From a virus: 64,000 nt of DNA. Positions 4,416-27,215 of this stretch are shown here, one piece after another; positions within the stretch are counted from its first letter, which is position 1, and the number at the start of each line of letters is the position of its first letter. Position numbers and translations under genes: made by a program. The stretch is taken from the IMG/VR virus record IMGVR_UViG_3300050343_000110, one strand, 5' to 3'. Under the pieces are notes generated by a model that saw only the letters and a program-made list of their open reading frames with translations, was not told the DNA's origin and made no database searches.

Positions 4416-5768
4416 TTGACACGCTCGTTTACAGATTTTATCACAGAAGAAAAGCAACTAGAAAACTACAAAGTAGTTATTCTTACAGTTGAGGTGGGTG
4501 ATAAATCTAAGACTGCAATCAAGTTTGAAAAAGAGGCAAAGAAGATGGGTATGGAAGTTCTTTTATCAGACTTCAAAACAACATCCCTGACCTTTAATAA
4601 TGGTAAGTATACTCTAAACAACAAAGACAAAAGTATGGACATCAGTTCCAAAGATACTGTTGTGTTTGTTAGAGGAACACCAACCAGAGATAGTCATCTA
4701 GACTTGATTTCAGAACTAGAAAGAATTGGTATTACTTGTATTAACAACAGAACTACTATCAGTATTTGTGCTGATAAGTATCGTAGTTATGTGAGACTAA
4801 AAGATTTCAGATTAGACCAACCCAAAAGTGTTCTTGTTCCTACAGAAGATGATATTGATTCTGCATTAGAAGAGCTTGATACCAAGTTTCCTATCATCCT
4901 CAAAACTCTTAGGGGTGCAGGCGGTGTTGGTGTTCTATTTGTTGAATCGAAACGTGCATTAGATTCTCTCGTACAATTAATTTATAAACAAGACCCAGAA
5001 ACAGATATTCTCATTCAAGAATATATCAAAACAGATGGTGACATTCGTGTTATTATTGTTGGTGATAATATTGTTGGTACAATGAAACGAGAAGTTGTTG
5101 AAGGAGATTTTAGAAGTAACTATACACAGGGTGGTGGGGTAAAATCTTACGACTTATCAGAAGAAGAAATTCGTCAATGTCTAATTGCTGCAAAGGCGGT
5201 TGATGGTGATTTTGTTGCAGTGGACTTTATTCCATACAAAGGTAAACCATACTTTTTGGAAGTAAACAGTTCGCCTGGCACAGAAGGTATTGAAGAAGCA
5301 AACTCTGGTTTGAACATTGCAAAAGAAGTTCTAGAACACTACAGGGATGTAAACAATAGATTTACTTCTCCTATCAGATGTGGTTTTCACGAGATGGTAA
5401 ACATAAAGCCATTTGGTGAAATCGAAACAAAGTTTGATACAGGGAATAGTGCATACTCAGTATTGCACGCTACTGACTTAAAAACTAGTGGTAGCAACAT
5501 CACGTTTACTACAGTAGGTGGTAAAACACATACTGCTAAACTAGAAAAAGAATATAAAGCAAGAACAGGGGGTGGAGTTGATGAACGCCCTATTGTTAAG
5601 TTAGAAGTCGAATTCATGGGCCATACACACGAACTGATGTTTGGGCTTGATGATAGAAATAAAAGAGGAACAGAAGTTCTTCTAAATAGATTTGCCATGA
5701 AAGAAATGAACGTCATGGTAGACCCTCAGAAGAAGTTGATTATTACTACAAAGAAAGGCGAAAAATAA
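4416..5768 (+). CDS. RimK-like ATP-grasp ligase fused to a C-terminal retropepsin-like (RimB-type) protease
   Basis: ATP-grasp motifs ADK, ILKTLRGAGGVGV, QEYI..DGDIRV, FRSNYTQGG, LEVNSSPG; protease KFDTGNS...ERPIV...LLNR; TTG start. Confidence 0.85.
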   Translation: MTRSFTDFITEEKQLENYKVVILTVEVGDKSKTAIKFEKEAKKMGMEVLLSDFKTTSLTFNNGKYTLNNKDKSMDISSKDTVVFVRGTPTRDSHLDLISELERIGITCINNRTTISICADKYRSYVRLKDFRLDQPKSVLVPTEDDIDSALEELDTKFPIILKTLRGAGGVGVLFVESKRALDSLVQLIYKQDPETDILIQEYIKTDGDIRVIIVGDNIVGTMKREVVEGDFRSNYTQGGGVKSYDLSEEEIRQCLIAAKAVDGDFVAVDFIPYKGKPYFLEVNSSPGTEGIEEANSGLNIAKEVLEHYRDVNNRFTSPIRCGFHEMVNIKPFGEIETKFDTGNSAYSVLHATDLKTSGSNITFTTVGGKTHTAKLEKEYKARTGGGVDERPIVKLEVEFMGHTHELMFGLDDRNKRGTEVLLNRFAMKEMNVMVDPQKKLIITTKKGEK

Positions 5769-5989
5769 TGACACTACTTGACGCAATTAAAAAACACAAC
5801 GAAGGTATCATTGCACTGCATAAAGCAAACATTGCAGTGTATCTAAAGAATCCGGCTGGTATTGGAGAACACTCTGATATCGCAGAAGCAGTACAATGTG
5901 AACTTGATAAGATTGCTGCTGCCCAAGATAGGATTGATGCAATCCATCAACATTTCTCATCAGAAGAACAAATGCCACTTTTCTCTTGA
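5768..5989 (+). CDS. Conserved T4-like hypothetical protein
   Basis: YLKNPAGIGEHSDI motif; coupled to the previous stop. Confidence 0.7.
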   Translation: MTLLDAIKKHNEGIIALHKANIAVYLKNPAGIGEHSDIAEAVQCELDKIAAAQDRIDAIHQHFSSEEQMPLFS

Positions 5990-6020
5990 CAAATCCCCCT
6001 AACGGTGGTATTATTATATA

Positions 6021-8539
6021 ATGAAATTTTACACACACGTTGCCCAATGGGGCAATCAACTACTTGTTCGTGCAGTAGAGAATGGTGTTCGTTCTAACTT
6101 CAAGGTTAAGTACGAACCCACTCTCTATGTGCCTGTTCAGAAAGAGACTGGCTGGACTACCCTAGAGGGTAAGAATGTCAGTCCTATGAACTTCCTCTCT
6201 ATTAAAGAGGCGAAGGAGTTTGTTGAACAGTATCAAAGTCAGCCCCATCTTGTCTATGGTATGACTCAATTCCCCTACACCTACATCGCCGAAAAGTATT
6301 CTAAACAGATTCAGTTTGACAGTTCACAAATGCGTATTGTCACGATTGATATTGAGGTAGAGTGTGAGAATGGTTTCCCTAACGCCGACAAGGCTCTAGA
6401 ACCTATGTTGGCTATCACCATCAAGAACCATGATACAGGACGTATCAAGGTTTGGGGTTTGCACGACTATCACAATGACAGAGAAGATGTTCAATACATC
6501 AAGTGTCAGACTGAACGTGAACTTCTGGCTCAGTTCCTTGCATGGTGGGAAAGTGACTATCCAGACGTAATCACTGGTTGGAATACAGAGTTCTTTGATA
6601 TTCCCTACATCTGCAACCGTATCAAATCGGTGATGGGTGAAGAGGCTATGAAACGTCTGTCGCCTTGGGGTATTGTAAACTCTCGCATGGTGAATTCTGG
6701 TTATGGACGTAAAGACCAAGTGTATGATATTGTGGGTGTTGTTGAGGTTGACTATCTTCAACTATATCGTAAGTTTACTTATTCTGCACAGGAATCTTAT
6801 CGTCTTGACCATATCGCCTTTGTGGAACTTGGTGAACGCAAAGATGAGAATCCTTATGAGACTTTTCGTGATTGGTATACGAAAGACTATCAGTCTTTCC
6901 TAGACTACAACATCCAAGACGTTGAACTGGTTGATAGGCTTGACGATAAGATGAAACTTATCGACCCTTATTCTGACTATGACGTATGAGGCCAAAGTAA
7001 ATATCTCTGACTCGTTTACGTCTGTTAAGTATTGGGATGTTCTCATTTACAATCATCTTCTCAAGAGAAAGATTGTCATCCCTCAAAAGACTTCCCACAA
7101 GTCCAAGGGTGAAAAGTATGTGGGTGCATATGTGAAAGAACCACAGGTTGGACAACACAAATGGGTTATGTCTTTTGACTTGAACTCATTGTATCCACAC
7201 CTTATCATGCAGTACAATATTTCGCCAGAAACACTATTGCCCGAAAAACGGTTGCCAGTTGATGTTGACCATCTTCTCGACAACAAACCTCTTCCTAAAC
7301 TTGAAGGTGCAACATTCACACCTAATGGTGCAGTCTTTCATAAACGTCACCAAGGGTTTCTCCCTGAGATGATGCAGTCGATGTATAATGACACGTACTA
7401 TCTACAAGAAGAAGATGTTGCAGGCAAAACAACAATATGAAGATACGAAGGATGCTAAATATCTAAAAGATGTTTCAAGGTACAACAACATTCAGATGGC
7501 TCGCAAGATTTCTCTAAACTCTGCCTATGGTGCAATTGGTAACGAATGGTTTCGTTATTATGATTTGCGTATTGCAGAAGGTATTACTACCTCTGGCCAG
7601 TTCTCTATTCGGTGGATTGAAAAGTCTCTGAATATGTATCTCAACAAACTGTTGAAAACTGAAGGAGAAGATTATGTCATTGCGTCTGATACGGATTCAG
7701 TATACATTACTTTTGACAAATTGGTTAATACTGTGCTTAAAGAACGAGAAGGAGAGTCGGAAGATTCATATCGTGGGCGGGCTGTTGATTTCCTTGACAC
7801 AGTGGCTCAAGAGAAGATTGAACCTTTTATTGATAAGTCTTATCAAGCTCTTGCTTCGTATGTAAATGCATATGAACAAAAGATGCAGATGGCTCGTGAG
7901 GTGATTGCCGACAAGGGTATCTGGACTGCAAAGAAAAGATACATTCTCAACGCATGGGATGTGGAAGGTGTTCGTTATCAAGAACCTCAACTCAAGATTA
8001 TGGGTATCGAGGCTGTCAAGAGTTCGACTCCTGCTCCTTGTCGTGACAAGATTAAGGAGTGTTTGAAGATTATTATGTCTGGTACAGAGAAAGATGTAAA
8101 CAACTTCATTCAAGAGTTTCGTGAAGAGTTTTTGCAACTGTCACCAGAAGAGATTGGATTCCCTCGCTCTGTGAATGGTATTCAGAAGTGGAGTGATAGT
8201 GCAAGTATCTTCAAGAAGGGAACACCTATGCATATCAAGGGCGTTATCCTTTACAATCACTTTGTCCGTCAACAAAAGTTGACTAACAAGTATCCACTAA
8301 TCCAAGAGGGTGAGAAAATCAAGTTCCTCAATATGCGTACTCCTAATCGTATGCAGTCTAACGTCATATCTTTTATGACTAAATTACCAAAAGAACTTGA
8401 CATTCACTCACATTTGGACTATGATATACAATTCGAGAAGGCTTTTATTGAGCCTCTCACTTTTATTATGAATCAGATTGGATGGAACATTGACCGTTCC
8501 TATGGTACACAAATGACTTTGGAGGACTTTTTTACATGA
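6021..8539 (+). CDS. gp43: Family B DNA polymerase gp43 (two frameshifts near 6963 and 7390)
   Basis: Exo DIEV, SFDLNSLYPH, KISLNSAYGA and SDTDS fall across three contiguous frames. Confidence 0.95.
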
Positions 8540-9675
8540 GATATAAACCATACAACCTAGAAGATGTAGTAAATGCATCTAATGAAAACAAGTTCAATGT
8601 AATCTCTACCTTTGCTGGTGGGGGTGGTTCGTCCACTGGTTATCGTCTGGCTGGTGGTAAAATACTTTGTGTAAATGAATTTGTAGAAGAGGCCCAGAAC
8701 ACTTATAGAGAAAACTATCCAGACACACCGATTTTGCCTGGCGACATTAAAGAACTATCTGGTAAAGACTTCTTGGATGTTGTTGGATTGAAAGAAGGTG
8801 AACTTGATATTCTAGATGGTTCTCCACCATGCAGTGCCTTCTCAGTCGCTGGTAAACTATCACATTCTACTGATGGTAAACACTCAGACGGTTGGGGCCA
8901 GACTAAGAATTATTCAGATGGTAAGATGGTAGAAAATATTGAGGACTTGTTCTTTGAGTTTCTACGAGTTGCAGATGATATCAGACCTAAAGTTATTGTT
9001 GCAGAGAATGTGAAGGGGTTGACTATCGGTGAGGCCAAACAATACTTTAATAAAATTAATAATACATTTGAAGATATTGGATATGATGTTGTTGCAAAGG
9101 TATTAGATAGTCGTTACTTTGGTGTATCACAAACTAGAACTCGTGTTATCTTTATTGGTTTGAGAAACGATATTACAGAGAAGGCTGGACTAAACTTTAT
9201 GACTATCAATAGTGTGTTTCCAGAACAAAGTGTAGATGTCATTCCACTAAAGGATGCACTTGTCGGACTAGAATATGATGCAGAGGAAGTTGACTATCTA
9301 ACTAAGAAGTTTCTTAATACTGCATACTGGAAAGATACTGGTAGTAATATGGAGATTGACCCACCAAAAGTTTTGACAGGTATGGACTATCATCCTAAAG
9401 GACACCACTTCAATTTGAAACGTGTATCACAGTATGCACCAGCCCCAACACTAACTGCAATGGGTAGTAATGATACAACTGCTGGTGCGTTTCACTGGGC
9501 CGAACCCAGAAAACTAACTATTGGCGAACTGAAAAGAATACAATCGTTACCAGACGATTTCAAACTTACTGGTAAGTGGAATCAGAAATCAGAACGTATC
9601 GGTAGAATGGTGCCTCCTCTGATGATGAAGGCTATCGCAGATTCAATTTATAATAAAGTACTAAAGGAGATATAA
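8536..9675 (+). CDS. C5-cytosine DNA methyltransferase-family enzyme (possible carboxymethyltransferase)
   Basis: FAGGGG, GSPPC, ENV, R.R; motif X reads GRMVPP where GN.V is usual. Confidence 0.9.
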   Translation: MRYKPYNLEDVVNASNENKFNVISTFAGGGGSSTGYRLAGGKILCVNEFVEEAQNTYRENYPDTPILPGDIKELSGKDFLDVVGLKEGELDILDGSPPCSAFSVAGKLSHSTDGKHSDGWGQTKNYSDGKMVENIEDLFFEFLRVADDIRPKVIVAENVKGLTIGEAKQYFNKINNTFEDIGYDVVAKVLDSRYFGVSQTRTRVIFIGLRNDITEKAGLNFMTINSVFPEQSVDVIPLKDALVGLEYDAEEVDYLTKKFLNTAYWKDTGSNMEIDPPKVLTGMDYHPKGHHFNLKRVSQYAPAPTLTAMGSNDTTAGAFHWAEPRKLTIGELKRIQSLPDDFKLTGKWNQKSERIGRMVPPLMMKAIADSIYNKVLKEI

Positions 9676-10376
9676 TGGCTGACTTTACTTTTGCACATAG
9701 AGAGGAAGGTTTTGATGAACATATTGAACATTCTATTCGTGGTTACAGTAATTTACTTGATGATGTGGTTCAGTACTCACGTTACTTTGTAGAAGATGAT
9801 ACTAATGTTGTAGACATTGGTTGTTCTACAGGAAAGTTCACTCAAATGATGTTAGAGGCTAATCAAGATTTTTGTTGTGATGCACATTACATTGGTGTTG
9901 AGATTGCAGAGGGGTTTCATAATGACTTACTCAAAAGACAAGAAAACATTGACAAATTGCACCCTTGGGCCTCAACTGAATTCTTATTTGAAGATGTTCG
10001 TGACTACGAGTTTGAAAACTGTTCTTTGATTACATCTATCTTCACTTTACAATTCATGCCACCTAGACATAGACAAGAAGTAATAAGACGAATCTATGAA
10101 GGATTAAATACTGGCGGTGCATTTATATTTGGAGAGAAAACAGTATGTCAAGACCCTAGACTACAGAATATGATGACATTTAATTATTATGACTACAAGA
10201 GAAAGAACTTTGATACAGAAGATATCATGGATAAAGAAAAGACTTTACGTCATATGATGAAACCAAACACTTGGGATGAGATTGTAAACAATCTTATTGA
10301 GGCTGGGTTTTGGGGTGATAAGATACAGCCATTTTGGAGAAACCACACATTCGTAGGAGCGATTGCAATAAAATGA
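9675..10376 (+). CDS. cmoA: CmoA-like carboxy-S-adenosylmethionine synthase
   Basis: FTF..F..I..SIRGY, DIGCSTG, FTLQF, IYEGLNTGG..EK, DYKR match the CmoA pattern. Confidence 0.85.
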   Translation: MADFTFAHREEGFDEHIEHSIRGYSNLLDDVVQYSRYFVEDDTNVVDIGCSTGKFTQMMLEANQDFCCDAHYIGVEIAEGFHNDLLKRQENIDKLHPWASTEFLFEDVRDYEFENCSLITSIFTLQFMPPRHRQEVIRRIYEGLNTGGAFIFGEKTVCQDPRLQNMMTFNYYDYKRKNFDTEDIMDKEKTLRHMMKPNTWDEIVNNLIEAGFWGDKIQPFWRNHTFVGAIAIK

Positions 10377-10669
10377 AACCTAACACAATAGTCACACTAG
10401 TAATGACAACAGGAGCCGAAATTATTGGACGGCTCGTAAAAGATGAATTTTCAACAATAGTAATTTACAAGCCTCGCCTAGTACAGGCGACTCAGCAGGG
10501 CGTGGGGCTTGTGAATGGAATAAGCATGACAGGTAAAGAAATCAATGAAGATTTTGAGTTTCCTAAAACATCAGTCGCATACATGGTAGAAACTATGAAA
10601 GAACTTGCAGATGGCTGGACTACACAAACTTCTGGTATTGCAGTTCCAACTCAAGGAATTATAAAGTAA
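10373..10669 (+). CDS. Hypothetical protein (Sm-like small T4-type protein)
   Basis: TGAEIIG and C-terminal TSGIAVP motif. Confidence 0.55.
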   Translation: MKPNTIVTLVMTTGAEIIGRLVKDEFSTIVIYKPRLVQATQQGVGLVNGISMTGKEINEDFEFPKTSVAYMVETMKELADGWTTQTSGIAVPTQGIIK

Positions 10670-12140: not shown

Positions 12141-12143
12141 AAT

Positions 12144-13199
12144 ATGGATTTTCTAAAAGATATTGCAAAGACAGCAGGCAACGAATATGCTGCTTTGGTG
12201 AGTGAAGGTGTAGAGGCTGGTGATGTTGATAACTTTATCGACACTGGTTCTTATATTTTCAATGCGTTGTTGAGTGGGTCAATCTATGGTGGATTGCCTG
12301 CGAACAAAATTACAGCAGTGGCGGGCGAGTCGGCCACTGGAAAAACATTCTTTGTGATGGGTATGGTTAAGTCATTCCTTGATGCAAACCCAGATGCTGG
12401 TGTGTTGTATTTTGAGTCTGAATCTGCAATCACAAAACAGATGGTAGTTGATAGAGGTATTGACCCAGAACGTATGGTTATCTTACCTGTAACAACTGTA
12501 CAAGAATTTCGTACACAAGCAATTAAGATTTTAGATAAATACATGGAGACACCAGAAGATAAACGTGTGCCTATGATGTTGTGTCTTGATTCACTTGGTA
12601 TGTTGTCTACTACAAAAGAAGTAGATGATACAAGTGAGGGTAAAGAGACACGAGATATGACACGGGCTCAAGTTCTAAAGGCTGCGTTTCGTGTATTGAC
12701 ACTAAAACTTGGTAAAGCAAAAGTTCCTATGGTTGTTACAAACCATACCTATGACGTTGTGGGTTCTATGTTCCCAACAAAAGAAATGGGTGGTGGTTCT
12801 GGATTGAAGTATGCGGCCTCATCTATTGTCTATCTTTCAAAGAAGAAAGAAAAGGACGGTACAGAAGTTGTTGGTAACATCATCCATTGTAAGAATGCAA
12901 AGTCACGTTTGACTATCGAAAACAAGATGGTGGACGTAAGACTTATGTATGAACGTGGACTTGATAGATACTATGGACTACTTGAACTTGCACTGAAGTA
13001 TGATATCTTCAAATCTGTTTCTACTCGTATTGAGTTACCTGATGGTACAAAGACATTTGGTAAGACTATCAACAATCAACCAGAAAAGTTCTTTACCCCA
13101 GAGATTATGGAACAGTTGGATGCAGTTGCTAGTAAAGAATTCAAGTATGGACAACGTGTAGAGGAAATTGAAGTTGAAGAAGAAACTGAACAAGATTGA
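12144..13199 (+). CDS. uvsX: RecA-like recombinase UvsX
   Basis: [23 protein letters not shown]. Confidence 0.95.
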
Positions 13200-15095: not shown

Positions 15096-15148
15096 TCTGT
15101 TATTATAAATAGTATTGAAATTATTTGTATGAATGGAAACGGTGTAAA

Positions 15149-16534
15149 ATGTCAATCAGAAAGTTTTATCGTCAACTGAATTCAGTTGATACATCTAAAG
15201 TATCGCACGTTGTAAGAGTTCAGAGTTTATACTCTGAATTGACTGAAGCGAATCTGAAGAAAGCTGATATTGCAAAACGTGACAACAAAGCCGTTCTTCA
15301 AGGTATTATTGATAGCAACACAAAAATATCTACAGATGAAGGACAAGTATCAATCAAGTGGATTGACAATGCATTAAAGGTTGCGTTTGATAACGATGAC
15401 TTTGATACTGCATTTCCATCAGGCAAAGCATCATTCACTGCATCTAACGGCAAAACTCTCAGAATTACACAAATAGAAAAGACTGCCGAGTTTGGTGGTG
15501 GTAAAGGTTCTGGTGGGGGTTCTTCTGGAACTCGTGCTGCTGAATCTGCACAGTGTGTATATTGTCAAGCAATCTGGAACAACCCCAAAACAGACTTCAA
15601 TATGTTAGAACTTCAGGCTGCATACGCACAAGTAAAGGTGGATGCAAGTTGGGAAGAGATTCAAAACCTATCAGATGATTGGGTTGTATCTTCTATTTCT
15701 GTTGCAAAAGGATTGTATAAAGCGCTTGGTAGAAACACATATAGTTTTCACAGAGGTTCAGAGTTTGTAGATATGATTGAAGGTTTGTTCAAGAATTCTG
15801 GACAGACTTACTTTACAAATGTAAACAAATGGACACCAGCAGATATTTGGATGGTACAGGATACCAAACTTAGTAACTATGATTTTGGTGGAAATAGTGG
15901 AAGCCCTGCACTTCCTTACATCAATCAAGAATTGTTGAAGGCATATGCCGCAAGAGATATCATGGGCGTATCTTTGAAGAAAACAACTAAAGTAAAATTC
16001 AAACAGATTAATTATAAGAAACCATTTAAGGCTCCAAGATACACTAATAAGTCTTTGGGTAAGAGAAACTTCTTTGCATCAAAGGACGGTTATCTTTTCG
16101 GTGCGAGTGGTTTGGAGATGCAGTTTAGAACCTTCCCAGCATTTCAGGCAGAGATTATTGGTGGTAAAGCGAAACACGGTAAACTTAGTGGAGACAGTGG
16201 AATTTCTAGTCCTATCGGTAAAGTTTTACAGGGCGCTGGTGTAAGAGAGTTTCCGGCCAGAAGCGATATTACTAACATGATTAGTAGAGAAAACGATAAG
16301 TTTTTTGAAATGTTTTATGCAGAGTATTTGAATGCTGGTGAAGATAGTAAAGTAACACTTGACGATTTCAAAAAACAACTATCAAAGAAAGATAGTGGTT
16401 GGTTAGAGTCAAAATATCTTGTCACATTTTTATTTAATAGAATAAAAGGTGCAGAACAGAAGTTCTTAGAACTTGCATATAGATATGCAAAATCCGAATC
16501 AGAAGATTCGTGTGTACACTTAAAGGCGATGTAA
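15149..16534 (+). CDS. PD-(D/E)XK nuclease-like late protein
   Basis: AAE...KWTPADIW...GVSLKK pattern; downstream of TATAAATA at 15104. Confidence 0.55.
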   Translation: MSIRKFYRQLNSVDTSKVSHVVRVQSLYSELTEANLKKADIAKRDNKAVLQGIIDSNTKISTDEGQVSIKWIDNALKVAFDNDDFDTAFPSGKASFTASNGKTLRITQIEKTAEFGGGKGSGGGSSGTRAAESAQCVYCQAIWNNPKTDFNMLELQAAYAQVKVDASWEEIQNLSDDWVVSSISVAKGLYKALGRNTYSFHRGSEFVDMIEGLFKNSGQTYFTNVNKWTPADIWMVQDTKLSNYDFGGNSGSPALPYINQELLKAYAARDIMGVSLKKTTKVKFKQINYKKPFKAPRYTNKSLGKRNFFASKDGYLFGASGLEMQFRTFPAFQAEIIGGKAKHGKLSGDSGISSPIGKVLQGAGVREFPARSDITNMISRENDKFFEMFYAEYLNAGEDSKVTLDDFKKQLSKKDSGWLESKYLVTFLFNRIKGAEQKFLELAYRYAKSESEDSCVHLKAM

Positions 16535-17780
16535 TGATAAATTTTAGTTCATTTCTTACAGAGGACAAGGGTGGAAAGAACCTACACCTAGAACATATTG
16601 AGGATGAAATCCTTAACTATGGTATTTCTGGTGGACGGGCTTCAATTAACTTTGTTCGCTCTCTACGAGATATGCTTGCTGGTGCATCACGTTCATCAAT
16701 AGACATGACTGTAAAGTGGGATGGAGCTCCTGCAATATTTGCTGGTATTGACCCTGCCGATGGTAAGTTTTTTGTTGCAAAGAAATCAGTATTCAATATA
16801 GAACCAAAACTCTATAAGTCAAATGCAGAGATTGATGCAGATGGATTATCTGGTGCATTGAATAGCAAATTCAAAGTTGCACTTGCAGAGTTTTCTAAGT
16901 TGGGTATTACAGATGTTCTTCAAGGTGACTTGATGTTTACTGATGATGTATCTACAGAAACTATTGATGGTAAGAGTTTTCTTACATTCCAACCCAACAC
17001 TATTGTATACGCAGTAGATGTAAATTCGGATTTGGGTAAGAAAATTGAAAATGCAAAGATTGGTGTCGTATGGCACACAACATACAAGGGTGCAGAACTA
17101 CAGGATATGAAAGCATCATTCGGTGCAAACATTAGTGGACTGCAATCTCCATCAACAGTATGGATGGATGATGCGACATACAAAGATGTATCTGGTAAAG
17201 CCACAATGACTGAAAAGGAAACATCTGCTGTGACAGCATCTTTATCATCTGCTGGTACAACATTCAGAAAGATTAATTCCACCCTGTTAACATCCTTTAT
17301 GAATATACAAAATACATTCACTGGAAACTTATCTGGAGCCTCTCTCAAGACTTACAATAATAGTAAGGTAAGAAAGGGGGAGACTATTAAGAATCCATCT
17401 GCTCATGCAAAGGGGTACTTAAAATGGGTAGAAGATGCATTTCAAAAGAATATAGACAAACTCAAGACCCCCTGCTCGTAAACAGGACTTGGAAAAAAAG
17501 AAAAAAGAAACTGTTCGTGAACTTGCAAAACACACGAAGAATTTGACTAGTATTATTGAGTTTCAGAACCACATTGTAGATGCAAAGATGGGGGGTCGTA
17601 AAGAAACTAAATACTGTTAAGAGCATTGGAACTTTCATCAAAACCGCCAATGGGTTCAAAGTTGTAAACCCAGAAGGATATGTTGCAATTGATAGAGTTA
17701 CAGGTGGTGCAGTTAAACTGGTGGATAGAATGGAATTTAGTTTCAATAACTTTACTGCAATAAAGGCATGGGATAAATGA
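16534..17780 (+). CDS. DUF6267-type protein with ATP-dependent ligase motifs (frameshifts near 17466 and 17590)
   Basis: NLHLEHIED, TVKWDG (motif I), QGDLMF (III), PEGYV (IV), VKLVDR (V). Confidence 0.7.
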
Positions 17781-19727
17781 TAAAGTTTTCAGAAATAAGA
17801 GAAGCTCGTGGTGACACTTGTGTATTTACCTTTGGTAGATTCAACCCACCAACGACAGGACACGAAAAACTATTAGATGCTGTTGCGGCACAGGTAAAGA
17901 AAAATCCTGGCGCACCCTATTATGTATTTGCGTCACACTCTGAAAACCCAAAGAAAGACCCTCTTCCATATGTAAAGAAGGTTGCATATATGAAGAAGAT
18001 GTTCCCAAAACACGCAAGGAACATTGTTGTAGATAAGGCAAGAAATGTATTTGAGATTGCAGTCTCATTACACAACAAAGGACACAAGGCAATCGTAATG
18101 GTTGTTGGTTCAGACAGAGTTGCAGAGTTTGATAAACTACTGAACACCTATAATGGTGTAGAAGCAAAACATGGTTTCTATGGTTTTGACAACATCGAAG
18201 TTGTATCTGCTGGAGAAAGAGACCCAGACGCAGAAGGTGTTGCTGGAATGTCTGCATCTAAGATGAGAGCCGCAGCATCTGCTGATGACTTTGACCAGTT
18301 CAAACTTGGTTTACCTAATGGTTTCAAACAGGGTATGTCTCTATTCAAAGATGTTCGTAAGTACATGGGTATTCGTGAATCATTTATTACGCACCAAGTA
18401 CAACAGACAGAAGAAGATGTGATTCGTGACTTGTATGTTGAAGGTAAAATCTTTACTATTGGTGAAGAAGTAACAGATACTTACAGTGGAGTAACAGGAA
18501 AGATTATTCGCAGAGGAACAAACTACGTTACTTTTGTAACAGAGGATGGCACATCATTCAAGAAGTGGTTGTATGAACTAGAACTAGCAGAAGATTGCTG
18601 GCCAGGATTTAAACAAGTTGGTATGAAAAAGAAGAACGGTAAAGACGTACCGAATTGCGTACCAGTTGGTGAAAAACAAGACAAGGACATTGATGATAAG
18701 AAGGGAACACAGCCTGCCAAGTATTTTGCAAAAGATGCTGAGGGTGATGAAATGGCAAAGTCTACAAAGGACAAGAGAGATGCTCATTTCAAAAAACAAG
18801 CGAAAAAGGATGACGATACTAAATCTGCATACAAACCAGCGCCAGGCGATGCATCTGCAAAAACTAAACCATCAAAGTATACAAACAAGATGAAGAAGAT
18901 GTTCCCAGACTTGTACAAAGAGATGGTAGATGAGAGTGCAACAAAGTCACTACAGAAGAAGGCAGATGCCTCTGGTATTTCTCTTGGTATTCTGAAGAAG
19001 GTATTCGATAGAGGTATGGCTGCATGGAAGGGTGGACATCGCCCAGGCACAACTGCTGTTCAGTGGGGCCATGCAAGAGTAAACTCTTTTATCTCAGGCG
19101 GCAAGACAAGAACTACTGGTGATGCAGATTTGTGGAAACAACACAAGGGTAAGAAAGAGACTTATGAGATTGGTAAAGACTATGCAGACCCATACTCGTA
19201 AGATTACACCGTTTCAAGAACACAGTTCATGTTGCGATGACTGTGCAGAAGAATCTAATCTAATTGAATCTAATGTATATCGTGTAGGTTCAGAAAAGTA
19301 TTATGAGTTCTTCCAAGAGAAAAGAGATGAATATAATATTGGAGTTTACACCCCAACAGGTTTTGATAAAGAACTGATGGAAGGTGATATTGGAAAGTAT
19401 GATATGTATCAAGGAAACCATGTTCCACTTGATTGTCCTATGATTGAAGAAAAAGATGTGGAACTAAACAAACCTAAAGTCGGTGGGCCTAAGAAGTACT
19501 ATGTGTATGTCAAAGACCCAAAGACAGGTAATGTTAAGAAGGTTACATTCGGAGATACGAGTGGACTGAAGGTTAAGTTGGATGATAAAGAGGCAAGAAA
19601 AAGTTTTGCCGCTCGTCATAACTGTGACCAACAAACAGACAGAACCAAGGCTGGATATTGGAGTTGTAATCTTCCAAAATATGCCAAACAACTTGGTTTG
19701 AGTGGGGGAGGCAATTTCTTTTGGTAA
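17777..19727 (+). CDS. HxGH-class nucleotidyltransferase (cytidyltransferase-like) multidomain protein (frameshift near 19187)
   Basis: FGRFNPPTTGH, VGSDR, GMSASKMR, followed by several small modules separated by acidic x-x-E linkers. Confidence 0.8.
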
Positions 19728-19996
19728 AACCTTATACTGAATCTTATGACAACGGTTTGATTATCAGAGAGTTTAAAGAGGATGTTGACAGTGAAGAACT
19801 GGTATGGCATAGAGACAAAAGAACAAGAGAGATAACAATTTTAGAGGGTAGGGGTTGGCAATTACAACTAGACAATCAATTACCTAAAGAATTACAACAA
19901 GGACTTTTATACACCATCCCAAAGATGGAGTATCACAGATTAATAAAAGGTACAGGGAAACTTGTCGTAAAAATATGGGAAGAAACACATGACTAG
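19721..19996 (+). CDS. Cupin-like hypothetical protein
   Basis: WHRD...E...YHRLIKG metal-binding pattern. Confidence 0.55.
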   Translation: MVKPYTESYDNGLIIREFKEDVDSEELVWHRDKRTREITILEGRGWQLQLDNQLPKELQQGLLYTIPKMEYHRLIKGTGKLVVKIWEETHD

Positions 19997-21467
19997 ATAT
20001 ACAAAAACTATGACAGAGGCCCTGCAAGAGATTCGTGAGGGGTTCTCATCAAAACAAATTAAAATGGCAATCGGTGTTGCATCAGATAAAAGATATGCTG
20101 GTGGAAACATGACAGGTGCAGTGGACGCTATTGAGAAAATCAAAAAAGGATTGTCTGACCATCCTCAAGTCGCCGCAGTTCTGAAAAGACAGAATGAAGA
20201 TCTGGAAGAAGAACTAGAACTTACTGAAGCAAAAATATCTAAAGAACTTGCAATTAAAATTTTGTCAATGAGGAAGGATAAAAAGTTTGTAAAGGTTTCT
20301 GGTGATTTTGTTCCAAAAATTTATTTGAGTGGCAACGATAAAGATGCATTAAAAAAAGAATTTGGAAAACTGCCTAGAGGACTACCTAGCGCAACATCTG
20401 GTATGTCAGTTGTATCAATGATTAACTATGCACTTGGTAGTAAAGATGGTCGTGACCCAATTGACACAGAGGACGGCGACAGTCAATCACCAAAATTAAT
20501 TAGTTGGAATAAAGGTGGTAAAGTTATTGGTAAACCAAGAACTGTAGGTGACGCAGTTAAAATTGCTGGTGTTAGAATGGAAAGTGTTGAAAGTGCTGAA
20601 CTTGATGAAGGTAAGATGAAAGACCGTCTAATGAAGGCACAAGACCTCATGGGCCCATCTAAAAATAGAGAACAGGGTATCGAATTTGTGATGAAAGGTT
20701 TAAAGGTTTCAGAGAAGGAAGCAACTAAACTTGTTGATGCAGTTCTAGATATGGTTATGAATAATGAAGTTGAAATTGATGAAATGAAAATGAATGACCC
20801 TAAGTTGAATAAAATATTCGACAAACTCAAAAAGGGTGATACTGTCAAACTCAAGACAAGTTCTACTATCAATCAAGGTAAAGACTTTGTAGAGTATATT
20901 GTGAAATCAAAGAACACAGTAAACAAAGGCAGAGTTGAAAAGATTACTCTTGTTACTAAAGGTAATGAGAAGGCAGTCAAGAAGTTTCTATACAAGAGAG
21001 ATGGCCAAGTAACATTTGCTATCGGTGATATGGGTGCATCTATTGATGATATCAAAGAAGAAAATCTTGATGAAGGTAAGGCTTATAAGTTTGCCGCTGT
21101 AGATAAAAAAGGATTGGTTATTGGATTTGCGTCTGACGAAAAAGATGCAAAGGATATGGCAAGAAGAAACAAGGGTAGAGTTGTTACTCTAACAAAACCT
21201 CTTCCAGATAACAAGAAGAGTGACATGATGGTTAATCGACCATTGCCAGACAAGATGGACAAGTTCCCAACCAATACGAGTGCAACTCAAGGTAAACGTA
21301 TGGGTGAAGAAGATGAAAAGAAAATGGACAAACCAGATTCTGCTAAAGAGGTAGAACAGGGGCGTGATGATAAGAAGAAAACTCGTATCGCTCAGTTGCA
21401 GTTGCAAATTGCAAAGGCAACAGAAACAATTAATAAACTAAACACACAGGAGAAACCAAATGCCTAA
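19989..21467 (+). CDS. Probable internal head (virion) protein, multi-module
   Basis: Lys/Glu-rich; repeated L/I-x-E linkers (LTEA, LDEG, IDEM, LDEG). Confidence 0.55.
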   Translation: MTRYTKTMTEALQEIREGFSSKQIKMAIGVASDKRYAGGNMTGAVDAIEKIKKGLSDHPQVAAVLKRQNEDLEEELELTEAKISKELAIKILSMRKDKKFVKVSGDFVPKIYLSGNDKDALKKEFGKLPRGLPSATSGMSVVSMINYALGSKDGRDPIDTEDGDSQSPKLISWNKGGKVIGKPRTVGDAVKIAGVRMESVESAELDEGKMKDRLMKAQDLMGPSKNREQGIEFVMKGLKVSEKEATKLVDAVLDMVMNNEVEIDEMKMNDPKLNKIFDKLKKGDTVKLKTSSTINQGKDFVEYIVKSKNTVNKGRVEKITLVTKGNEKAVKKFLYKRDGQVTFAIGDMGASIDDIKEENLDEGKAYKFAAVDKKGLVIGFASDEKDAKDMARRNKGRVVTLTKPLPDNKKSDMMVNRPLPDKMDKFPTNTSATQGKRMGEEDEKKMDKPDSAKEVEQGRDDKKKTRIAQLQLQIAKATETINKLNTQEKPNA

Positions 21468-21957
21468 GTATTTGAAAACCAAAGAAGGTAGTCTTGAAAG
21501 TGCAGTGGAAGCGGTTTCTACTGCACAACAGGCTGCAATCGCAATATCAAAAAAAGAAAAAGCAGGGAAACCTGGCTATGATAAAGAAGGCAAATCATTG
21601 AAAGATGATATGACTACAGAGGACAAAGAAGCATATGAGAAGTTCTTCAAGTCTGCACTGAAGAAGTTTGGTGTTGACAGTCCTGCTGACTTCAAATCTG
21701 ATGAAGAGAAAAAGAAGTTCTTTGATTACGTTGACAAGAACTACAAGGGTGAAAACGAAAAGGCTGAAGAAGTCAAAGAAGAAACTCTTGCAATGAAAAC
21801 AGCAAAACACATTTCTGATATGTGGGCTGAAGCTTCATCAAAGAAAGATGTTAAGTCTGAAGAAGATGAAGATGAAGATGAGAAAAAAGAAGATGGTAAA
21901 ACTATGACAGGTAAACCCATGTCAAAGGTTGATACTAAGGTTGTAGAGAAGGACTAA
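21460..21957 (+). CDS. Probable internal head/core protein
   Basis: AQQAAIAISKKE and YEKFFKSALKKFGV...KKFFDYVD modules; highly charged. Confidence 0.55.
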   Translation: MPKYLKTKEGSLESAVEAVSTAQQAAIAISKKEKAGKPGYDKEGKSLKDDMTTEDKEAYEKFFKSALKKFGVDSPADFKSDEEKKKFFDYVDKNYKGENEKAEEVKEETLAMKTAKHISDMWAEASSKKDVKSEEDEDEDEKKEDGKTMTGKPMSKVDTKVVEKD

Positions 21958-21959
21958 TC

Positions 21960-22474
21960 ATGCGTAATCTTGTGGAACTCACAAAGATAAATGAAGCAGA
22001 GCTTCCACAAATATATTGTGACATGGATATCAAGTTCTTTGTGACTTCATTGGTGGTTATGAACAACTTACTGGTTTACAGTTTGCGAAAACCGATAAAG
22101 ATGAGCGGTGGAATGCAATCACAGGGAAGAAAGATTTCTGGGCAACTCTTAATTGGATGCCTGGCGCTAAAGTAATGTGGAAGTTGATTAATAAATATAA
22201 TGCAAATATTTTGTCTGCATATTCTAATAGAGATGGAAACAGTAGAAGGGGTAAGACACAATGGTTGTCTAAGAATGCCAAACCTACTGGTAAAACACAT
22301 CTTGTTCTGAGAGCAGATAAACAAAAGTATGCCATGACTGACGGTAAACCTAATATCTTGATTGATGATTATATCAAAAATATCAAGGAGTGGGAAGCCG
22401 CTGGTGGTATTGGGATTCATCATCTGAGTCCAACACAAACTATATCTCAATTGAAGAGATATGGATTTAGATAA
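21960..22474 (+). CDS. HAD-family 5'(3')-deoxyribonucleotidase-like protein (frameshift near 22026)
   Basis: IYCDMD(Q)VLCDF, ILSA, K..W, ILIDD...W..AGGIGI. Confidence 0.8.
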
Positions 22475-22508
22475 ATAGAAGAGAAATCTTTAATTAAGGA
22501 GAAAGACT

Positions 22509-23541
22509 ATGGCCCTATGGGGAAATACAGATGCAGATGAAGCAAAACCAAAGTGGCTCACTGCTGACCCAAAAGACTAACGTGTTTGCAACCAATAAAG
22601 GTTGGACACAATTAAATGGCAAAGGACTTGAAGAAGTTATTTGTGCAATCGGTGGATTGTCAGGCGCATTAAATGCTTCTGATATTACATCAGTAAAATT
22701 TGTTCAGACATCTCTTGCTGCTGGTTCAAGAACAATCTCAGTTGATGTATCATTCAACGAGAAAGTTGCTGTAACTGGTACTCCACAGTTGGTTGTGGAT
22801 AATGCCAACAACTCAAGTGCTGGTAACGGAGACTACACACTAGACTACGCAAGTGGTACAGGAACTAACAAGTTGAGATTCACTAAAGCATCTCAAACTG
22901 TTGCTGCAACAGACGTACTTGCAATCGGTGGTGGTTCACCATCTGCTACAGCAGTAACACTTAACGGTGGTACTATTACTGGTGTTGATGGTGATAAACT
23001 TGGTACAATCACAATCGCTACTGCGACTGCTGGTTCTACTACATTCCCAACTGCTTCAGTTGATACGAATACCGATTCGATTTCTGCTGGTACAGTAAAC
23101 ACTCTAGTTGCTAAAGTACACTCTGCAACAGTTGCTGCTGGTGGCTCTAACTATGCAGTGGGTAACGAGATTACTATTGCAAATGGTTTCGGTACAGGAA
23201 CTAACGCAGTACTAGTAGTTGCAACAGTTAATTCTGGTGCAGTATTAACTGCAACAGTAAAACCTGCTGCTCCTGGCGTGTACTCTGCAATCGCTGGTGG
23301 TGTTACAGGAATTGCACAACAATCAGTAAATACTGGTAGTGGTTCTGGTGCAACATTTGACTTGACACTTGCTGTCGCTTCACTTGCAGTGAACTCTGCT
23401 GGTGCTGGTTATTCTGCCGCTCCAGATATTCTACTTGCTGGTACAGGACTTGAACAACAAGCAACTGTATCTCTAGTAGGTACTGCTGCTGCACTTGCAA
23501 CAACTGGTGCTGCTCAAGAGACACTAACTGTAGTCGCATAA
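22509..23541 (+). CDS. Virion structural/fibre protein (frameshift near 22566)
   Basis: MALWG..D..KPKWL N-terminus; Ig-like FNEKV.VTGTP.L and Y.SGTGTNKL.F; G/T/A-rich. Confidence 0.7.
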
Positions 23542-23568
23542 GTAGTAATATAATAAACGGAGTATATA

Positions 23569-23829
23569 ATGGCAAAGAATGATAAGGCACAACTTAGTGT
23601 CGATGATATTGAAAAACGTAAAACAAATTTGAATACTGAGCTTGAACAGGTTCATGCTCAGATTCAAAAAATAGATAATATGAGAGTTCAGTTGACAGCA
23701 CAAGGTAACGCCATCAATGGTGCAATCCAACAATGTGATGCTTTTCTGCAACAATTAGGTGAGTCGAGTCCCGACAGTAGCATTCCCTCTCAAGAGGCAA
23801 ATCCAGCAATAAATGCTGTGATGTCTTGA
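23569..23829 (+). CDS. Coiled-coil hypothetical protein
   Basis: Heptad pattern; GGAG RBS. Confidence 0.6.
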   Translation: MAKNDKAQLSVDDIEKRKTNLNTELEQVHAQIQKIDNMRVQLTAQGNAINGAIQQCDAFLQQLGESSPDSSIPSQEANPAINAVMS

Positions 23830-23859
23830 GGGTTCAAATTAAACTAAGGAGAAAGAAAA

Positions 23860-24336
23860 ATGGCAGATAAGAAAATTACTGCACTATCAGATCTTGGAGC
23901 AGGTATTGCTGGCGAAGATCTACTTCATGTGATTGATGACCCATCAGGCAACCCTGTTAATAAACGTGTGTCTGTAACTGATGTTTTTGGTAATATTCCA
24001 TCTATTGTTGCACTTGGTGGAACACCACAGGCAATTACTGCAGCTACCACTGCACCAAATATTACTACAACAATCACCACTATTGACTCAACATCTGGAG
24101 CGCATACAGGAACTATTTCTGAGACTTCAGTTAAACAGGGTCAAATTAAGCATATCGTAAAGATTGCTGGATCAAACTCAAATACTTCTACACTTACAGT
24201 AACAACTGGTGTAGGTATTGCAACAATTGTTCTAACAAGAATTGGTGACTCTGTAACACTTATGTGGACAGGCGCTCAAGGATGGGCAGTTGTAGGAACT
24301 GGTGGCATTAGTGCCGGCGGCCCAACAATTACTTAA
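23860..24336 (+). CDS. Virion structural protein
   Basis: [11 protein letters not shown]-terminus; beta-rich GDSVTLMW C-terminus. Confidence 0.65.
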
Positions 24337-24355
24337 TTAGAAAAAGGATAGAAAA

Positions 24356-24766
24356 ATGAAAACCTTTAAGAATCATTTAAACGAAAAGGCTGTAGATGGT
24401 GGTTATCCAGTAGATACAGATTCATTTTCTAACGACCTTGCAAAACCAGAAAATATCGAAAGAATTAATTCGTTTCTTGGTGCAATGAGTAAGATAGAAT
24501 ATCTTGTTCCAGAACACGCAATTAACAAAATTAAAGAAAGACTAGGTAGACTAGCAATTTCTTTCGGTGATGTTGACTTGAATGAGGCAGGGGGTAAAAT
24601 CTCCCTGCCACTTACTCAATTTGGTGGTCGTTCAGGAATGGATGATAATGCTGAAAAGATTGATGACGATGGTATCTCTCACAAAGTTGAGGGCGGTTTG
24701 TCAATTGAAATCATGCATGAAAAAACTGGAGCAGGAACACATTTTATTAAAGCCAGAATCGTTTAA
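24356..24766 (+). CDS. Hypothetical late protein with capsid-targeting-like N-terminus
   Basis: Starts MKTFKNHLNE. Confidence 0.6.
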   Translation: MKTFKNHLNEKAVDGGYPVDTDSFSNDLAKPENIERINSFLGAMSKIEYLVPEHAINKIKERLGRLAISFGDVDLNEAGGKISLPLTQFGGRSGMDDNAEKIDDDGISHKVEGGLSIEIMHEKTGAGTHFIKARIV

Positions 24767-24781
24767 TAGACGAAGGCAAAT

Positions 24782-25144
24782 ATGTTTGAAAAATTAACTA
24801 ATGATAACATCACAATGTTTGCAATTAAACATTATGATAATCCACAGTGTGAAGGTGAAGCCGAATTCCATGATGACATGAAACGCTTTAAGTATGTAAA
24901 GCGTTTGTTGAGAAAATATCAAGACTCGGGCGAATTAAAAGAACGACTGATATTAAATCACTTAATTGTTATCTTTAACGTGTTCGGTGCAGATGCTGGT
25001 TCTACATTGCTTCTGTTTAAGATTGAACCTGAGCATTGGAGTATTCTAAAAACATTTATGGTGTTTTTAAATATGCTACCAGATGGTGAAATTGCAGAAG
25101 TAGAATTAAACACTGAAGTCGAGAAAGTATTAGAGAAACTATAA
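24782..25144 (+). CDS. Conserved T4-like hypothetical protein
   Basis: FAIKHYDNP.C..EF.DD..RFKY.KRL..LILNH. Confidence 0.75.
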   Translation: MFEKLTNDNITMFAIKHYDNPQCEGEAEFHDDMKRFKYVKRLLRKYQDSGELKERLILNHLIVIFNVFGADAGSTLLLFKIEPEHWSILKTFMVFLNMLPDGEIAEVELNTEVEKVLEKL

Positions 25145-25756
25145 TGGGAAGAGCGATTGATTTATTTGTAACGTACCGTTTCATCAGACTGCTGACTACG
25201 CCGTTTGAAAAAACAGATGCGTTTAAGATGGGTATTATTGATAAGAACGGCAATAGGTTGCCGAAGAAACTGTATAAGATTGATGAACGCAATGCATATA
25301 CTGTATTGCATAAACTTGTATTCAATATCAAGAAACTATTTCAAAAAGTGCCTGGCCTTAGAACTAAGGTTGGTACATACGCTGCTGCCCTATTCTTACT
25401 GAAAGATACTTTCAAAGAACACGTTGAAGACCCCAAAGATGTTTGAGAAAGAGTTTCTTAAATATCTAGAGGAGAACAATATAGAACTTGATGATACTAT
25501 TGCAGAGGAAGTAACTCTGGACAACGGTAAACTATCAAAGGGTATCTATACTCTCACACAGGATGTTGTTGCAACAGAAGATGAGGAAGAAATTGAGGCA
25601 TTGGAAGGTGATGAGGTTGAGGTATTTGAAGATACACCAGCCGCAGATACTATTTTGGGCGTTGATGTTTTTCCAGTAATTCATATAAAAACAAAGCAGA
25701 AGATATTTGTTTCTGCTGAAGATATTAAGGAAGTAGATATAGGGGATCTATTATGA
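25144..25756 (+). CDS. Conserved T4-like hypothetical protein (frameshift near 25429)
   Basis: YRFIRLLTTPF..AFKMGIID..G; continues as MFEKEFLKYLEE. Confidence 0.65.
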
Positions 25757-26253
25757 GTCTAAAATTCGATGACATTATGAAAAAATTCTATGATGACCCA
25801 TCACTAGGTATCAAGACTGAAGATGCTCCTACCAACAATGCTGGTAGTGGTGCAGTCTCTATGCCACCTGATGCGGCAATGAAGAAGAAAAAGAAAAATC
25901 CATATGATGGTAGAACTAAAGAAGCAAGGCAGTTCTATAAGAGAATGGAAACGCTTCGTGCAAGAAGAGAATCTAGGCTTGCAAAGAAAGTTCAAGAGAA
26001 TACTATTGAACAGGCAAGTTATTTTGCAGAGAGTAATCTTGATGTGTTGAAAAAGATTGTAAAAGACAAACAACACCAAAATGTCAAATTTAAAGATGGG
26101 AATATGAAAGTGGACTTGTTCACTGCCTCAGCAGTAACACAAGTATATGACAAAGTTAATCGTTCCAACCAACAGAAGATGGATAAAATGTTGAATGGTA
26201 AGAAGGCAGAGTTTATGAAGATTGCCAACTTTGCACTTTCAAAGGTTAAATGA
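25753..26253 (+). CDS. Probable internal head protein
   Basis: EDAPTN, YDGRTKE and KFKDG..KVDLFTASA modules. Confidence 0.55.
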   Translation: MSLKFDDIMKKFYDDPSLGIKTEDAPTNNAGSGAVSMPPDAAMKKKKKNPYDGRTKEARQFYKRMETLRARRESRLAKKVQENTIEQASYFAESNLDVLKKIVKDKQHQNVKFKDGNMKVDLFTASAVTQVYDKVNRSNQQKMDKMLNGKKAEFMKIANFALSKVK

Positions 26254-27215
26254 AGAACTTTGCAAACTATATTACAGAACAAACTCTGTCTAAATCTGAC
26301 TTAGATGGAGTCGAAAAGTATGCAGATAGATTGTATGCGGCCGCTGGTATTGACGTTGAGTTTACCAGACATTTTCTTGACAGAGTAAATGACAGTCGTA
26401 ACAAGAAACAGATTACTGTGGCAGAACTTATTCGTATGTTTAAACAGTCTTATAAAAAGTTTGGTAAGAAGATTGCGAAACTTGGCCCTGATGCAGAGGC
26501 GGTATTAAATGATATGCAAACAGATATCAATATGCCCTTTGTTCTCAAATGGGATGGTAAAGAGTTAGACTTAATTGCAAAGACAGTAATGAGAAAGAGA
26601 AACTTTGGAACAACGAATCCAAAGTTAAGTTTTGAAGAATTTGAATTCTTTCCTGAAAACTTACATGAAAGAATTGTGCTTCCTGAACCCCCTACAGATT
26701 TACAAAAAGAAGCAGACAAAGTAAAACAGATTATTGCGAATAGGACTCCAGAAGATGAACAGTCTATTCGTATTCACGATGAGAATTCATTTTACGCTAT
26801 TGACAAATATTGTGAAGAACATGGGTTATTATTTCACGATAGTGAGATGAAAGATATCGTGATGCAAGCAAAACCCACAATCAAATATTTTAAAGAACAT
26901 TTCAATATTGATAGACCTCACGAAGTTGATCCGTCTATCAAACCAATGTCTAGTACTACAAACAAGACTAGAGCCTATCCAAGTGGACACGCAACTCAAT
27001 CAATGTTAGTTGGGTTGTACGTTTCTGCAAAGTTTCCAGAACATGAGGATGGTATAATCAGGGCCGCAAAAGAATGTGGACTTGGTAGAGTGAAAGCAGG
27101 ATTTCATTATCTTGCAGATTATGTCGCTGGCAATTTACTTGCAGAAAAAATGTTCCTAGTTATGAACAAAGATAACTATGGTAAATATATAAAGGAAGAA
27201 ATTGATGGCGCCTAG
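26250..27215 (+). CDS. Two-domain protein with C-terminal PAP2 / class A acid phosphatase
   Basis: K..F..RP, YPSGH, R..AGFHY..D; N-terminus MKNFANYITE. Confidence 0.8.
   Translation: MKNFANYITEQTLSKSDLDGVEKYADRLYAAAGIDVEFTRHFLDRVNDSRNKKQITVAELIRMFKQSYKKFGKKIAKLGPDAEAVLNDMQTDINMPFVLKWDGKELDLIAKTVMRKRNFGTTNPKLSFEEFEFFPENLHERIVLPEPPTDLQKEADKVKQIIANRTPEDEQSIRIHDENSFYAIDKYCEEHGLLFHDSEMKDIVMQAKPTIKYFKEHFNIDRPHEVDPSIKPMSSTTNKTRAYPSGHATQSMLVGLYVSAKFPEHEDGIIRAAKECGLGRVKAGFHYLADYVAGNLLAEKMFLVMNKDNYGKYIKEEIDGA

Follow-up and report, generated by a model that had tools for sequence, protein, structure and literature searches.

Within a 64,000-nucleotide virus record of IMG/VR (IMGVR_UViG_3300050343_000110; this whole stretch is called the window), genes lying between positions 4416 and 27215 and belonging to five unrelated domain families carry, at codon 1, a common N-terminal peptide that is very probably a capsid-targeting sequence (CTS) of the phage T4 type and a signal for packaging into the head. 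The window derives from a Melnitz/HTVC008M-like marine myophage of the Kyanoviridae. We propose that the tagged proteins would be made late, that the leader would direct them to the scaffolding core as the prohead assembles, that a gp21-type prohead protease would cut after the Glu of [I/L]-x-E, a site of the kind with which the major capsid protein propeptide ends, and that the mature enzymes would stay inside the DNA-filled head and probably exit with the DNA at infection. The cargo would include at least five proteins, namely a RimK-type protein with a protease-like half, a DUF6267 protein, an NMNAT-like cytidylyltransferase, a 136-residue protein and a PAP2 fusion. Cleavage after the Glu is likely by analogy with T4, injection into the host with the DNA seems slightly the better bet on the same precedent, and a role in anti-defence or host takeover is less assured than injection.

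All seven N-termini to which the initial annotation, made from the letters alone, had drawn attention are present in the window at the coordinates it gave. Five open reading frames (ORFs), all on the plus strand, begin with M-x-x-F-x-x-(aromatic)-[IL]-x-E or with a variant one residue longer or shorter. The strict ten-residue form is found in the DUF6267 protein (M-I-N-F-S-S-F-L-T-E, 16534-16563), the 136-residue acidic protein (M-K-T-F-K-N-H-L-N-E, 24356-24385) and the PAP2 fusion (M-K-N-F-A-N-Y-I-T-E, 26250-26279); the RimK-type protein has an 11-residue version, one residue longer than the strict form ((TTG)M-T-R-S-F-T-D-F-I-T-E, 4416-4448), and the nucleotidyltransferase a 9-residue version, one residue shorter (M-I-K-F-S-E-I-R-E, 17777-17803). 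When every ATG, GTG and TTG followed by 50 or more codons, in any of the six frames, was scanned for the strict pattern ^M..[FYW]..[FYWHI][IL].E, the only matches in the window were 16534, 24356 and 26250, all of them genuine gene starts. Shuffling residues 2-14 of each predicted protein gave an expectation of 0.03 strict matches per proteome, against 3 observed (Poisson P ~4e-6). A looser pattern of 9-11 residues yielded six matches versus 0.77 expected (P ~1.5e-4), five scored directly and the sixth, 16534, scored there from its upstream GTG; the same looser pattern occurs at 2 of 538 internal Met positions. The initial annotation had also asked whether the motif is as frequent in replication genes. 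It is enriched at N-termini, and the replication genes of the window (gp45, gp44, gp62, regA, gp43, uvsX, gp41, gp61, gp32 and gp59) are without it.

The model for this peptide is T4, in whose genome record the internal proteins IPII and IPIII begin MKTYQEFIAE and the gp23 propeptide ends SFLTE-AE. T4 IPI starts with MKTFKEF, and its residues 17-19 are ITE, the reported cleavage point. Across T4 bases 50,001-150,000, ipII and ipIII are the only matches to the strict pattern in any of the six frames. With the CTS of IPI, IPII and IPIII the leaders share Met1, a length of about ten residues, an aromatic residue at position 4, an aromatic or hydrophobic residue at position 7 and I/L-x-E at positions 8-10, as well as attachment to otherwise unrelated proteins and, in relatives, head machinery of the gp21 and gp22 type and the presence of tagged proteins in virions. 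They differ from it in belonging to another viral family (Kyanoviridae, which infect marine OM43, SAR11 and cyanobacteria), in being joined to large enzymes (136 to ~650 residues) whereas the T4 cargo consists of small basic inhibitor proteins, and in occurring as 9- and 11-residue forms within one protein family. T4 Alt, an enzyme that travels in the head and reaches the host together with the DNA, provides a precedent for an enzymatic payload, although its leader (MELITE) is shorter and of another type and its ADP-ribosyltransferase is unrelated to the enzyme classes of the window. The ejection proteins of giant phages have long propeptides and another cleavage motif, and are not known to have a short tag of the CTS type at Met1. 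Two reports on these phages (SPN3US and phiKZ-like) describe many proteins of the head interior that mature through a T4-gp21-like protease and are ejected into the cell (PMC5694885, PMC7411985).

The leaders are conserved at the loci examined, which comprised 80 IMG/VR loci around DUF6267 and 27 around RimK. The RimK-type gene opens with a TTG (read as Met) that immediately follows the regA stop codon, and the codon in this place is TTG, GTG or ATG in 23 IMG/VR relatives; its relatives encode (M)A[QR]SF[ST][DE]FI[TIV]E from a TTG or GTG next to that stop, and three loci have ATG and the canonical 10-residue METFSQFLSE instead, such that the family includes both 10- and 11-residue leaders. DUF6267 leaders in IMG/VR follow M[LIK].F..[FY..][LI].E and then an invariant DKGG, with nine- and ten-residue forms both present. 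For the nucleotidyltransferase, 120 close database homologues, and likewise the IMG/VR loci, begin M[KR].F..[IL].E followed by ARGDT, and the orthologues in S-SM1 and Syn9 (MKKFSAFL[NS]E, the strict form) and S-CREM2 (MKNFSSFLTE) are tagged as well. Relatives of the leader at 24356 read MKNFSKFITE, MKTFNKYIAE and MKNFKNHIAE, and the HTVC008M homologue, gp139 (3e-17), begins MKSFKDFQNVNE; those of the leader at 26250 read MKTFRQHLLSE, (TTG)KTFNQHVLTE and MKSFNQFKSLSE. The orthologues in Melnitz (MTQKFSQFITE, (TTG)INFSKYITE, MKKFSEIIE and MKNFKNHIAE) keep the key residues and differ at the others, and Melnitz has one further tagged gene, at 12203 (MQGFKTFLSE). Interchange of ATG, TTG and GTG, together with upstream stop codons in relatives, confirms the start positions.

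A purpose unrelated to the capsid, in which the motif would be an mRNA translation or RegA-type operator signal, or a peptide for docking to a chaperone, the membrane or the replisome, strikes us as very unlikely. The motif codons are indeed A/T-rich (ATG AAA .. TTT), the RimK gene directly follows regA, and MK.F-type starts are common in AT-rich phages. However, among 33 distinct DUF6267 leaders position 1 is ATG, TTG or GTG, the invariant F at position 4 is TTT or TTC, the L or I at position 8 is written with six different codons, and the invariant E at position 10 is GAA or GAG. With synonymous codons this free and start codons this varied, selection therefore acts on the peptide and not on an RNA element, and an RNA-level origin was rejected on the codon evidence. 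Any such purpose also has to contend with variable positions that change freely, with replication and early genes that lack the tag, and with a tag that predicts detection in virions in two independent proteomes.

The capsid-targeting reading is further supported by the portability of the tag, as the same domains occur with and without it in the sequences compared. We searched DUF6267 against cluster representatives (50% identity clustering), obtaining 150 diverse representatives, among them 35 with the strict tag and 4 with the 9-residue form; the tag invariably stands just upstream of a conserved KN.HLEH.ED motif, and many other representatives begin at this motif, leaderless, for example MSKNTHLEHLED. 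Similarly, the cytidylyltransferases of S-SM1, Syn9, S-CREM2 and Melnitz-like phages have the tag, and that of P-HM2 lacks it and starts directly at the Rossmann strand; in S-SM1 and Syn9 about 66 further residues lie between tag and domain. An AlphaFold model of the window DUF6267 protein (pLDDT 89) has a single N-terminal low-confidence stretch, residues 1-20 (pLDDT ~50), in which the leader is modelled as detached.

Published virion proteomes of two relatives connect the tag with the particle itself. Purified S-SM1 virions yielded 41 proteins (Sullivan et al., 2010; PMC3037559), including a putative cytidylyltransferase (T4-GC190) with 25 peptide counts, compared with 18 for the portal gp20, and also GC1453, GC1454, GC1455, the S-layer-domain protein GC425 and GC426; together these make up most of the S-SM1 gp41-gp61 cluster. 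SSM1_190 (GC190), the orthologue of the window gene at 17777, begins MKKFSAFLNE, and SSM1_192 (GC1455), with 7 peptide counts in virions, begins MLSFKELQE. In a scan of the whole S-SM1 genome these two were the only annotated starts with the tag, and both are virion-detected (2/2, with 41 of 234 ORFs detected; hypergeometric P 0.030), and the untagged neighbouring DUF6267 protein (GC71) is absent from the list of proteins detected in virions. An independent proteome, that of S-CREM2 (PMC10665884, Table 3), was compared with a scan of its genome record, OR473000.1. The strict tag stands there at only three annotated starts, those of ORF6 (SAM hydrolase, MKDFDSFLEE), ORF14 (kinase, (GTG)KRFDAFLTE) and ORF154 (cytidylyltransferase, MKNFSSFLTE), all of which are detected in virions (3/3, with 52 of 219 ORFs detected; hypergeometric P 0.013) and are the three virion proteins listed as 'regulatory' in that report (PMC10665884). 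ORF13 (MKDLHSFLTE) is virion-detected too. Combining the two phages, 5/5 tagged annotated starts are detected (product of the P values 4e-4).

The nucleotidyltransferase of the window thus joins a family represented among the NMNAT-like, cytidylyltransferase, kinase and SAM-hydrolase proteins of S-SM1, S-SCSM1, S-CBWM1 and S-CREM2 virions, the difference being that such enzymes are here linked, by the present analysis, to a common T4-type tag. Their authors proposed that enzymes of this kind travel in the particle and are taken into the host (PMC9602691, PMC10665884, PMC3037559), and the proteomics passages of these three reports make no mention of a shared leader or mechanism. That the leaders resemble the T4 CTS by chance, and that virion detection reflects abundant proteins which co-purified, is hardly credible and already disfavoured. 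The motif is short, its looser form has false positives in T4, and contamination is a concern raised by the S-CREM2 authors themselves (PMC10665884); against this stand the three strict matches where 0.03 are expected, the 35 tagged proteins among 150 DUF6267 representatives, and the detection of every tagged start in the two proteomes (P ~4e-4).

The machinery on which packaging would depend is encoded in relatives, as Melnitz, S-SM1 and S-CREM2 have homologues of the gp21 protease and the gp22 scaffold. Their gp23 propeptides carry [I/L]-x-E at the position of T4 FLTE-AE, and alignment with T4 puts the probable cleavage position at AFLSE-AAP in Melnitz and GLLTE-AP in S-CREM2. As to timing, a T4-type late-promoter-like box, TATAAATA, lies at 15104-15111 on the plus strand of the window, between gp41 and the head of the downstream cluster. 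Melnitz has TATAAATA at the equivalent place, 12156, which is 47 nt before the tagged gene start at 12203, and the same box precedes most of its structural genes. In S-CREM2 the minus strand has copies at 5110 and 13361, located 29-30 nt upstream of ORF6 and ORF15, and no others; these two copies precede the two operons on that strand whose products include tagged proteins detected in virions. A plus-strand copy at 124580 lies 28 nt upstream of ORF154. These boxes suggest that the tagged genes are expressed late. We also sought published early, middle and late classes for the cyanophage orthologues, and found orthologue lists that do not give the timing of these genes.

A more serious alternative, improbable in our estimation, is that the leader is a signal for prohead targeting and the protease, and that the proteins act only in assembly and are not injected effectors; they would then be helpers associated with the core or scaffold that are degraded or expelled like T4 gp22, gp67 and gp68, or remain as inert internal proteins. 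[I/L]-x-E sites do occur throughout the Melnitz gp22 scaffold, and the neighbouring genes of the S-SM1 cluster encode several ordinary structural proteins (GC425, with its S-layer domain, and GC426). By contrast, mature virions purified on CsCl still contain the tagged proteins, at counts similar to that of the portal (25 versus 18 for gp20 in S-SM1), catalytic motifs (KxDG, HxGH, PAP2 and ATP-grasp) are intact in the conserved enzymes that make up the cargo, and the tagged proteins of T4, together with Alt, are injected (PMC3012670; T4 annotation). Collectively, the match to IPII and IPIII, the conservation and portability of the leader and the occurrence of tagged S-SM1 and S-CREM2 proteins in virions uphold the proposal of the initial annotation as far as marking for the capsid is concerned, while cleavage, injection and a role in the host, which it had also put forward, keep the standing of proposals by analogy with T4 IPI* and Alt.

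Several observations weigh against the capsid-targeting reading. The tag is not universal, since the HTVC008M cytidyltransferase starts MKTLKELLRKK, without the Glu. In T4 the looser pattern also matches lysozyme e, RnlA and cd.3, the first two of which are not packaged; given these matches it was not used as evidence on its own, and variants of nine and eleven residues were therefore accepted only where conservation supports them. The window is without head genes, so that protease and scaffold are known from relatives alone. The tagged genes lie within the replication module, and a short consensus box is the sole basis for their late expression. Virion detection covers homologues and analogues in S-SM1 and S-CREM2 and none of the five window proteins themselves, and the S-CREM2 authors caution that virion preparations may carry along non-structural proteins that are abundant (PMC10665884).

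A broader proposal, which we put at just under even, is that Kyanoviridae, whose cyano-, pelagi- and methylo-myophages rank with the most abundant viruses in the sea, load an exchangeable set of enzymes into the head by means of a portable T4-type tag and inject them as a first strike on host defences or for metabolic takeover. The set would consist of the ligase-like, NMNAT-like, RimK-type and phosphatase proteins here, and, in S-CREM2, of a SAM hydrolase, a kinase and a Cas9-like nuclease. T4 already provides the principle; what is new is its extension to Kyanoviridae of the Melnitz and pelagiphage type with enzymatic cargo, and the tie between the tag and proteomics results that were published without explanation. 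A large share of the cyanobacteria, SAR11 and OM43 cells in the ocean falls to marine T4-like phages each day, and very little is known of what enters the host with the DNA. The sequence probably suffices to tell which proteins are packaged and, if the broader proposal is true, the injected proteome of uncultured marine phages would be readable directly from metagenomes. For the puzzling enzymes that several proteomics papers found in cyanophage virions, where cargo and contamination compete as explanations, a shared T4-type leader would account for the detections and separate the two. The T4 CTS code would then be conserved far beyond the T-even phages, and the DUF6267 ligase-like protein, the NMNAT-like protein, the RimK-type ligase and the PAP2 phosphatase are nominated as candidates for immediate-early action on the host.

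Turning to the cargo, the domain labels that had been assigned from the sequence alone are broadly right (RimK, the KxDG ligase motif of DUF6267, the HxGH nucleotidyltransferase and PAP2), with the zinc protease less secure. The RimK-like ATP-grasp peptide ligase (4416-5768, plus strand) has a RimK domain at residues 119-307 (PF08443, 137 bits, E 7e-40) and a C-terminal putative Zn-protease-like domain that scores below the Pfam cut-off (PF05618, 22.4 bits versus 27), so the 'protease' half is tentative. The PAP2 fusion (26250-27215, plus strand) joins an N-terminal domain without known family to a class-A acid-phosphatase-like PAP2 domain (PF01569, 32.7 bits versus a cut-off of 27.2), and its residues 163-300 match the acid phosphatase 7f18 in the PDB (1.5e-11). 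The ORF that directly follows it, at 27202-28272, is untagged and encodes a ring-hydroxylating oxygenase alpha-subunit catalytic domain (Pfam 3e-7). The 136-residue acidic protein (24356-24766, plus strand) has no match in Pfam or PHROG.

The DUF6267 protein (16534-17780, plus strand), a probable ligase-like nucleotidyltransferase, matches its Pfam family at 3e-82; the ORF stops at 17481 and, through two frameshifts, continues to ~17780, a different frame holding the C-terminal end of the profile (17592-17777). In a comparison of 87 diverse sequences, the TVKWDG motif has an invariant K61 and D63 and a nearly invariant G64, and the QGD, PEGFV and KLVDR blocks are conserved, a set typical of covalent nucleotidyltransferases (motif I, KxDG; motifs III, IV and V). 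The top match of the AlphaFold model in VIA-align was RNA editing ligase 1 of T. brucei (Z 6.2, 126 residues, root-mean-square deviation 4.0), and the top rows from Foldseek were DNA ligases, all weak (E > 0.1); PDB sequence searches with this protein and with the nucleotidyltransferase returned nothing useful. The initial annotation had called the protein polynucleotide-ligase-like, a description that gains from the KxDG and further ligase-like motifs and from the fold match and is not thereby established; 'ligase-like' is likely but unproven.

The adjoining gene (17777-19727, plus strand) encodes a cytidylyltransferase-like protein of the HxGH, NMNAT-like type with a DUF5824 domain (PF01467 and PF19141). 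PF01467 (CTP_transf_like) scores 28.5 bits against a cut-off of 21, and FGRFNPPTTGHE at residues 19-30 holds the N-terminal (T/H)xGH motif; the NMNAT-like label is a prediction. Its product is homologous to S-SM1 SSM1_190 (1e-65). Near 19190 one inserted nucleotide, a C added to a run of C (GACCCATAC), truncates the ORF at 19201; tblastn finds the continuation in the next frame, and relatives are 649-650 residues long, giving an expected length of ~649 residues. DUF6267 and HxGH nucleotidyltransferase genes adjoin in the window (16534-19727), and the two domains are fused, in either order, in many metagenomic proteins and in phrog_455 (the fused proteins include P0154, P0227, P0229, P0245 and P0252). 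This adjacency and the fusions suggest a single two-enzyme pathway, for instance RNA repair or a nucleotide cofactor step.

Two looser versions of the leader, at 19989 and 21960, had been listed in the initial annotation together with the others; both N-termini are present and conserved in relatives, and both are off-pattern, which leaves them as candidates only. The 492-residue basic protein at 19989-21467 (plus strand) has the weak candidate leader M-T-R-Y-T-K-T-M-T-E, kept as MTRY..[TS]M.E in relatives and HTVC008M, in which P3 is Met and not Ile/Leu; the protein has no family match in Pfam or PHROG searches. A Met at P3 recurs in S-CREM2 ORF12 (7704-10313, minus strand), a Cas9-like nuclease detected in virions, which has RFASFMAE-A at residues 19-27 and not at Met1; either its start is mis-annotated or it has an internal or longer leader in the style of IPI. 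The HTVC008M gp134 homologue at 21960-22474 (plus strand, frameshift near 22026) has the weak candidate leader M-R-N-L-V-E-L-T-K-I-N-E; its N-terminus (MRNLVELTKINE) departs from the pattern, and relatives start MK.LVELT.I.E. It matches gp134, annotated as a 5'-3' deoxyribonucleotidase, in tblastn (1e-28), and Pfam did not confirm a phosphatase family for it, the label resting on the gp134 homology only. Another kind of N-terminus is seen in S-SM1 SSM1_191 (GC1454, virion-detected) and Syn9 gp185, which start MNLN[ED]LPDMSDAL with L-x-E at residues 3-5; resembling T4 Alt (MELITE), gp67 (MEGLIE) and gp68 (MLLIPE), such MNLN[ED]L starts may represent a second leader type in Kyanoviridae.

The closest cultured relative is the Methylophilales (OM43) phage Melnitz, which the window matches at ~81% nucleotide identity over conserved genes; its gene order parallels that of Melnitz and of the Pelagibacter phage HTVC008M, both Kyanoviridae, and cyanophage replication genes are more distant matches. 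Every gene in positions 1-57,500 is on the plus strand, and the order is gp45, gp44, gp62, regA, the RimK gene, gp43, uvsX, gp41, a mostly unannotated cluster and gp61. Frameshifts are numerous in the assembly (6021-8539, 17470-17600, ~19190, ~22026, ~22574 and ~25440). At 6021-8539, gp43 is spread over three frames and is colinear with a single 843-residue Melnitz protein. Because this essential gene is affected, the frameshifts point to sequencing or assembly errors, and the idea that the truncated ORFs are pseudogenes was rejected. The gp134-like, S-layer-domain and gp141-like genes are likewise split. With so many frameshifts, ORF ends in the window are unreliable; the leaders are intact.

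The rest of the gp41-gp61 cluster (22509-23541, 23860-24336 and 24782-25144) matches genes of S-SM1 and HTVC008M. As a whole, the cluster behaves like a module of virion proteins embedded in the replication region. Its S-layer-domain protein (GC425) was detected in S-SM1 virions, and its DUF7207 protein (GC198) is kept in all phages compared.

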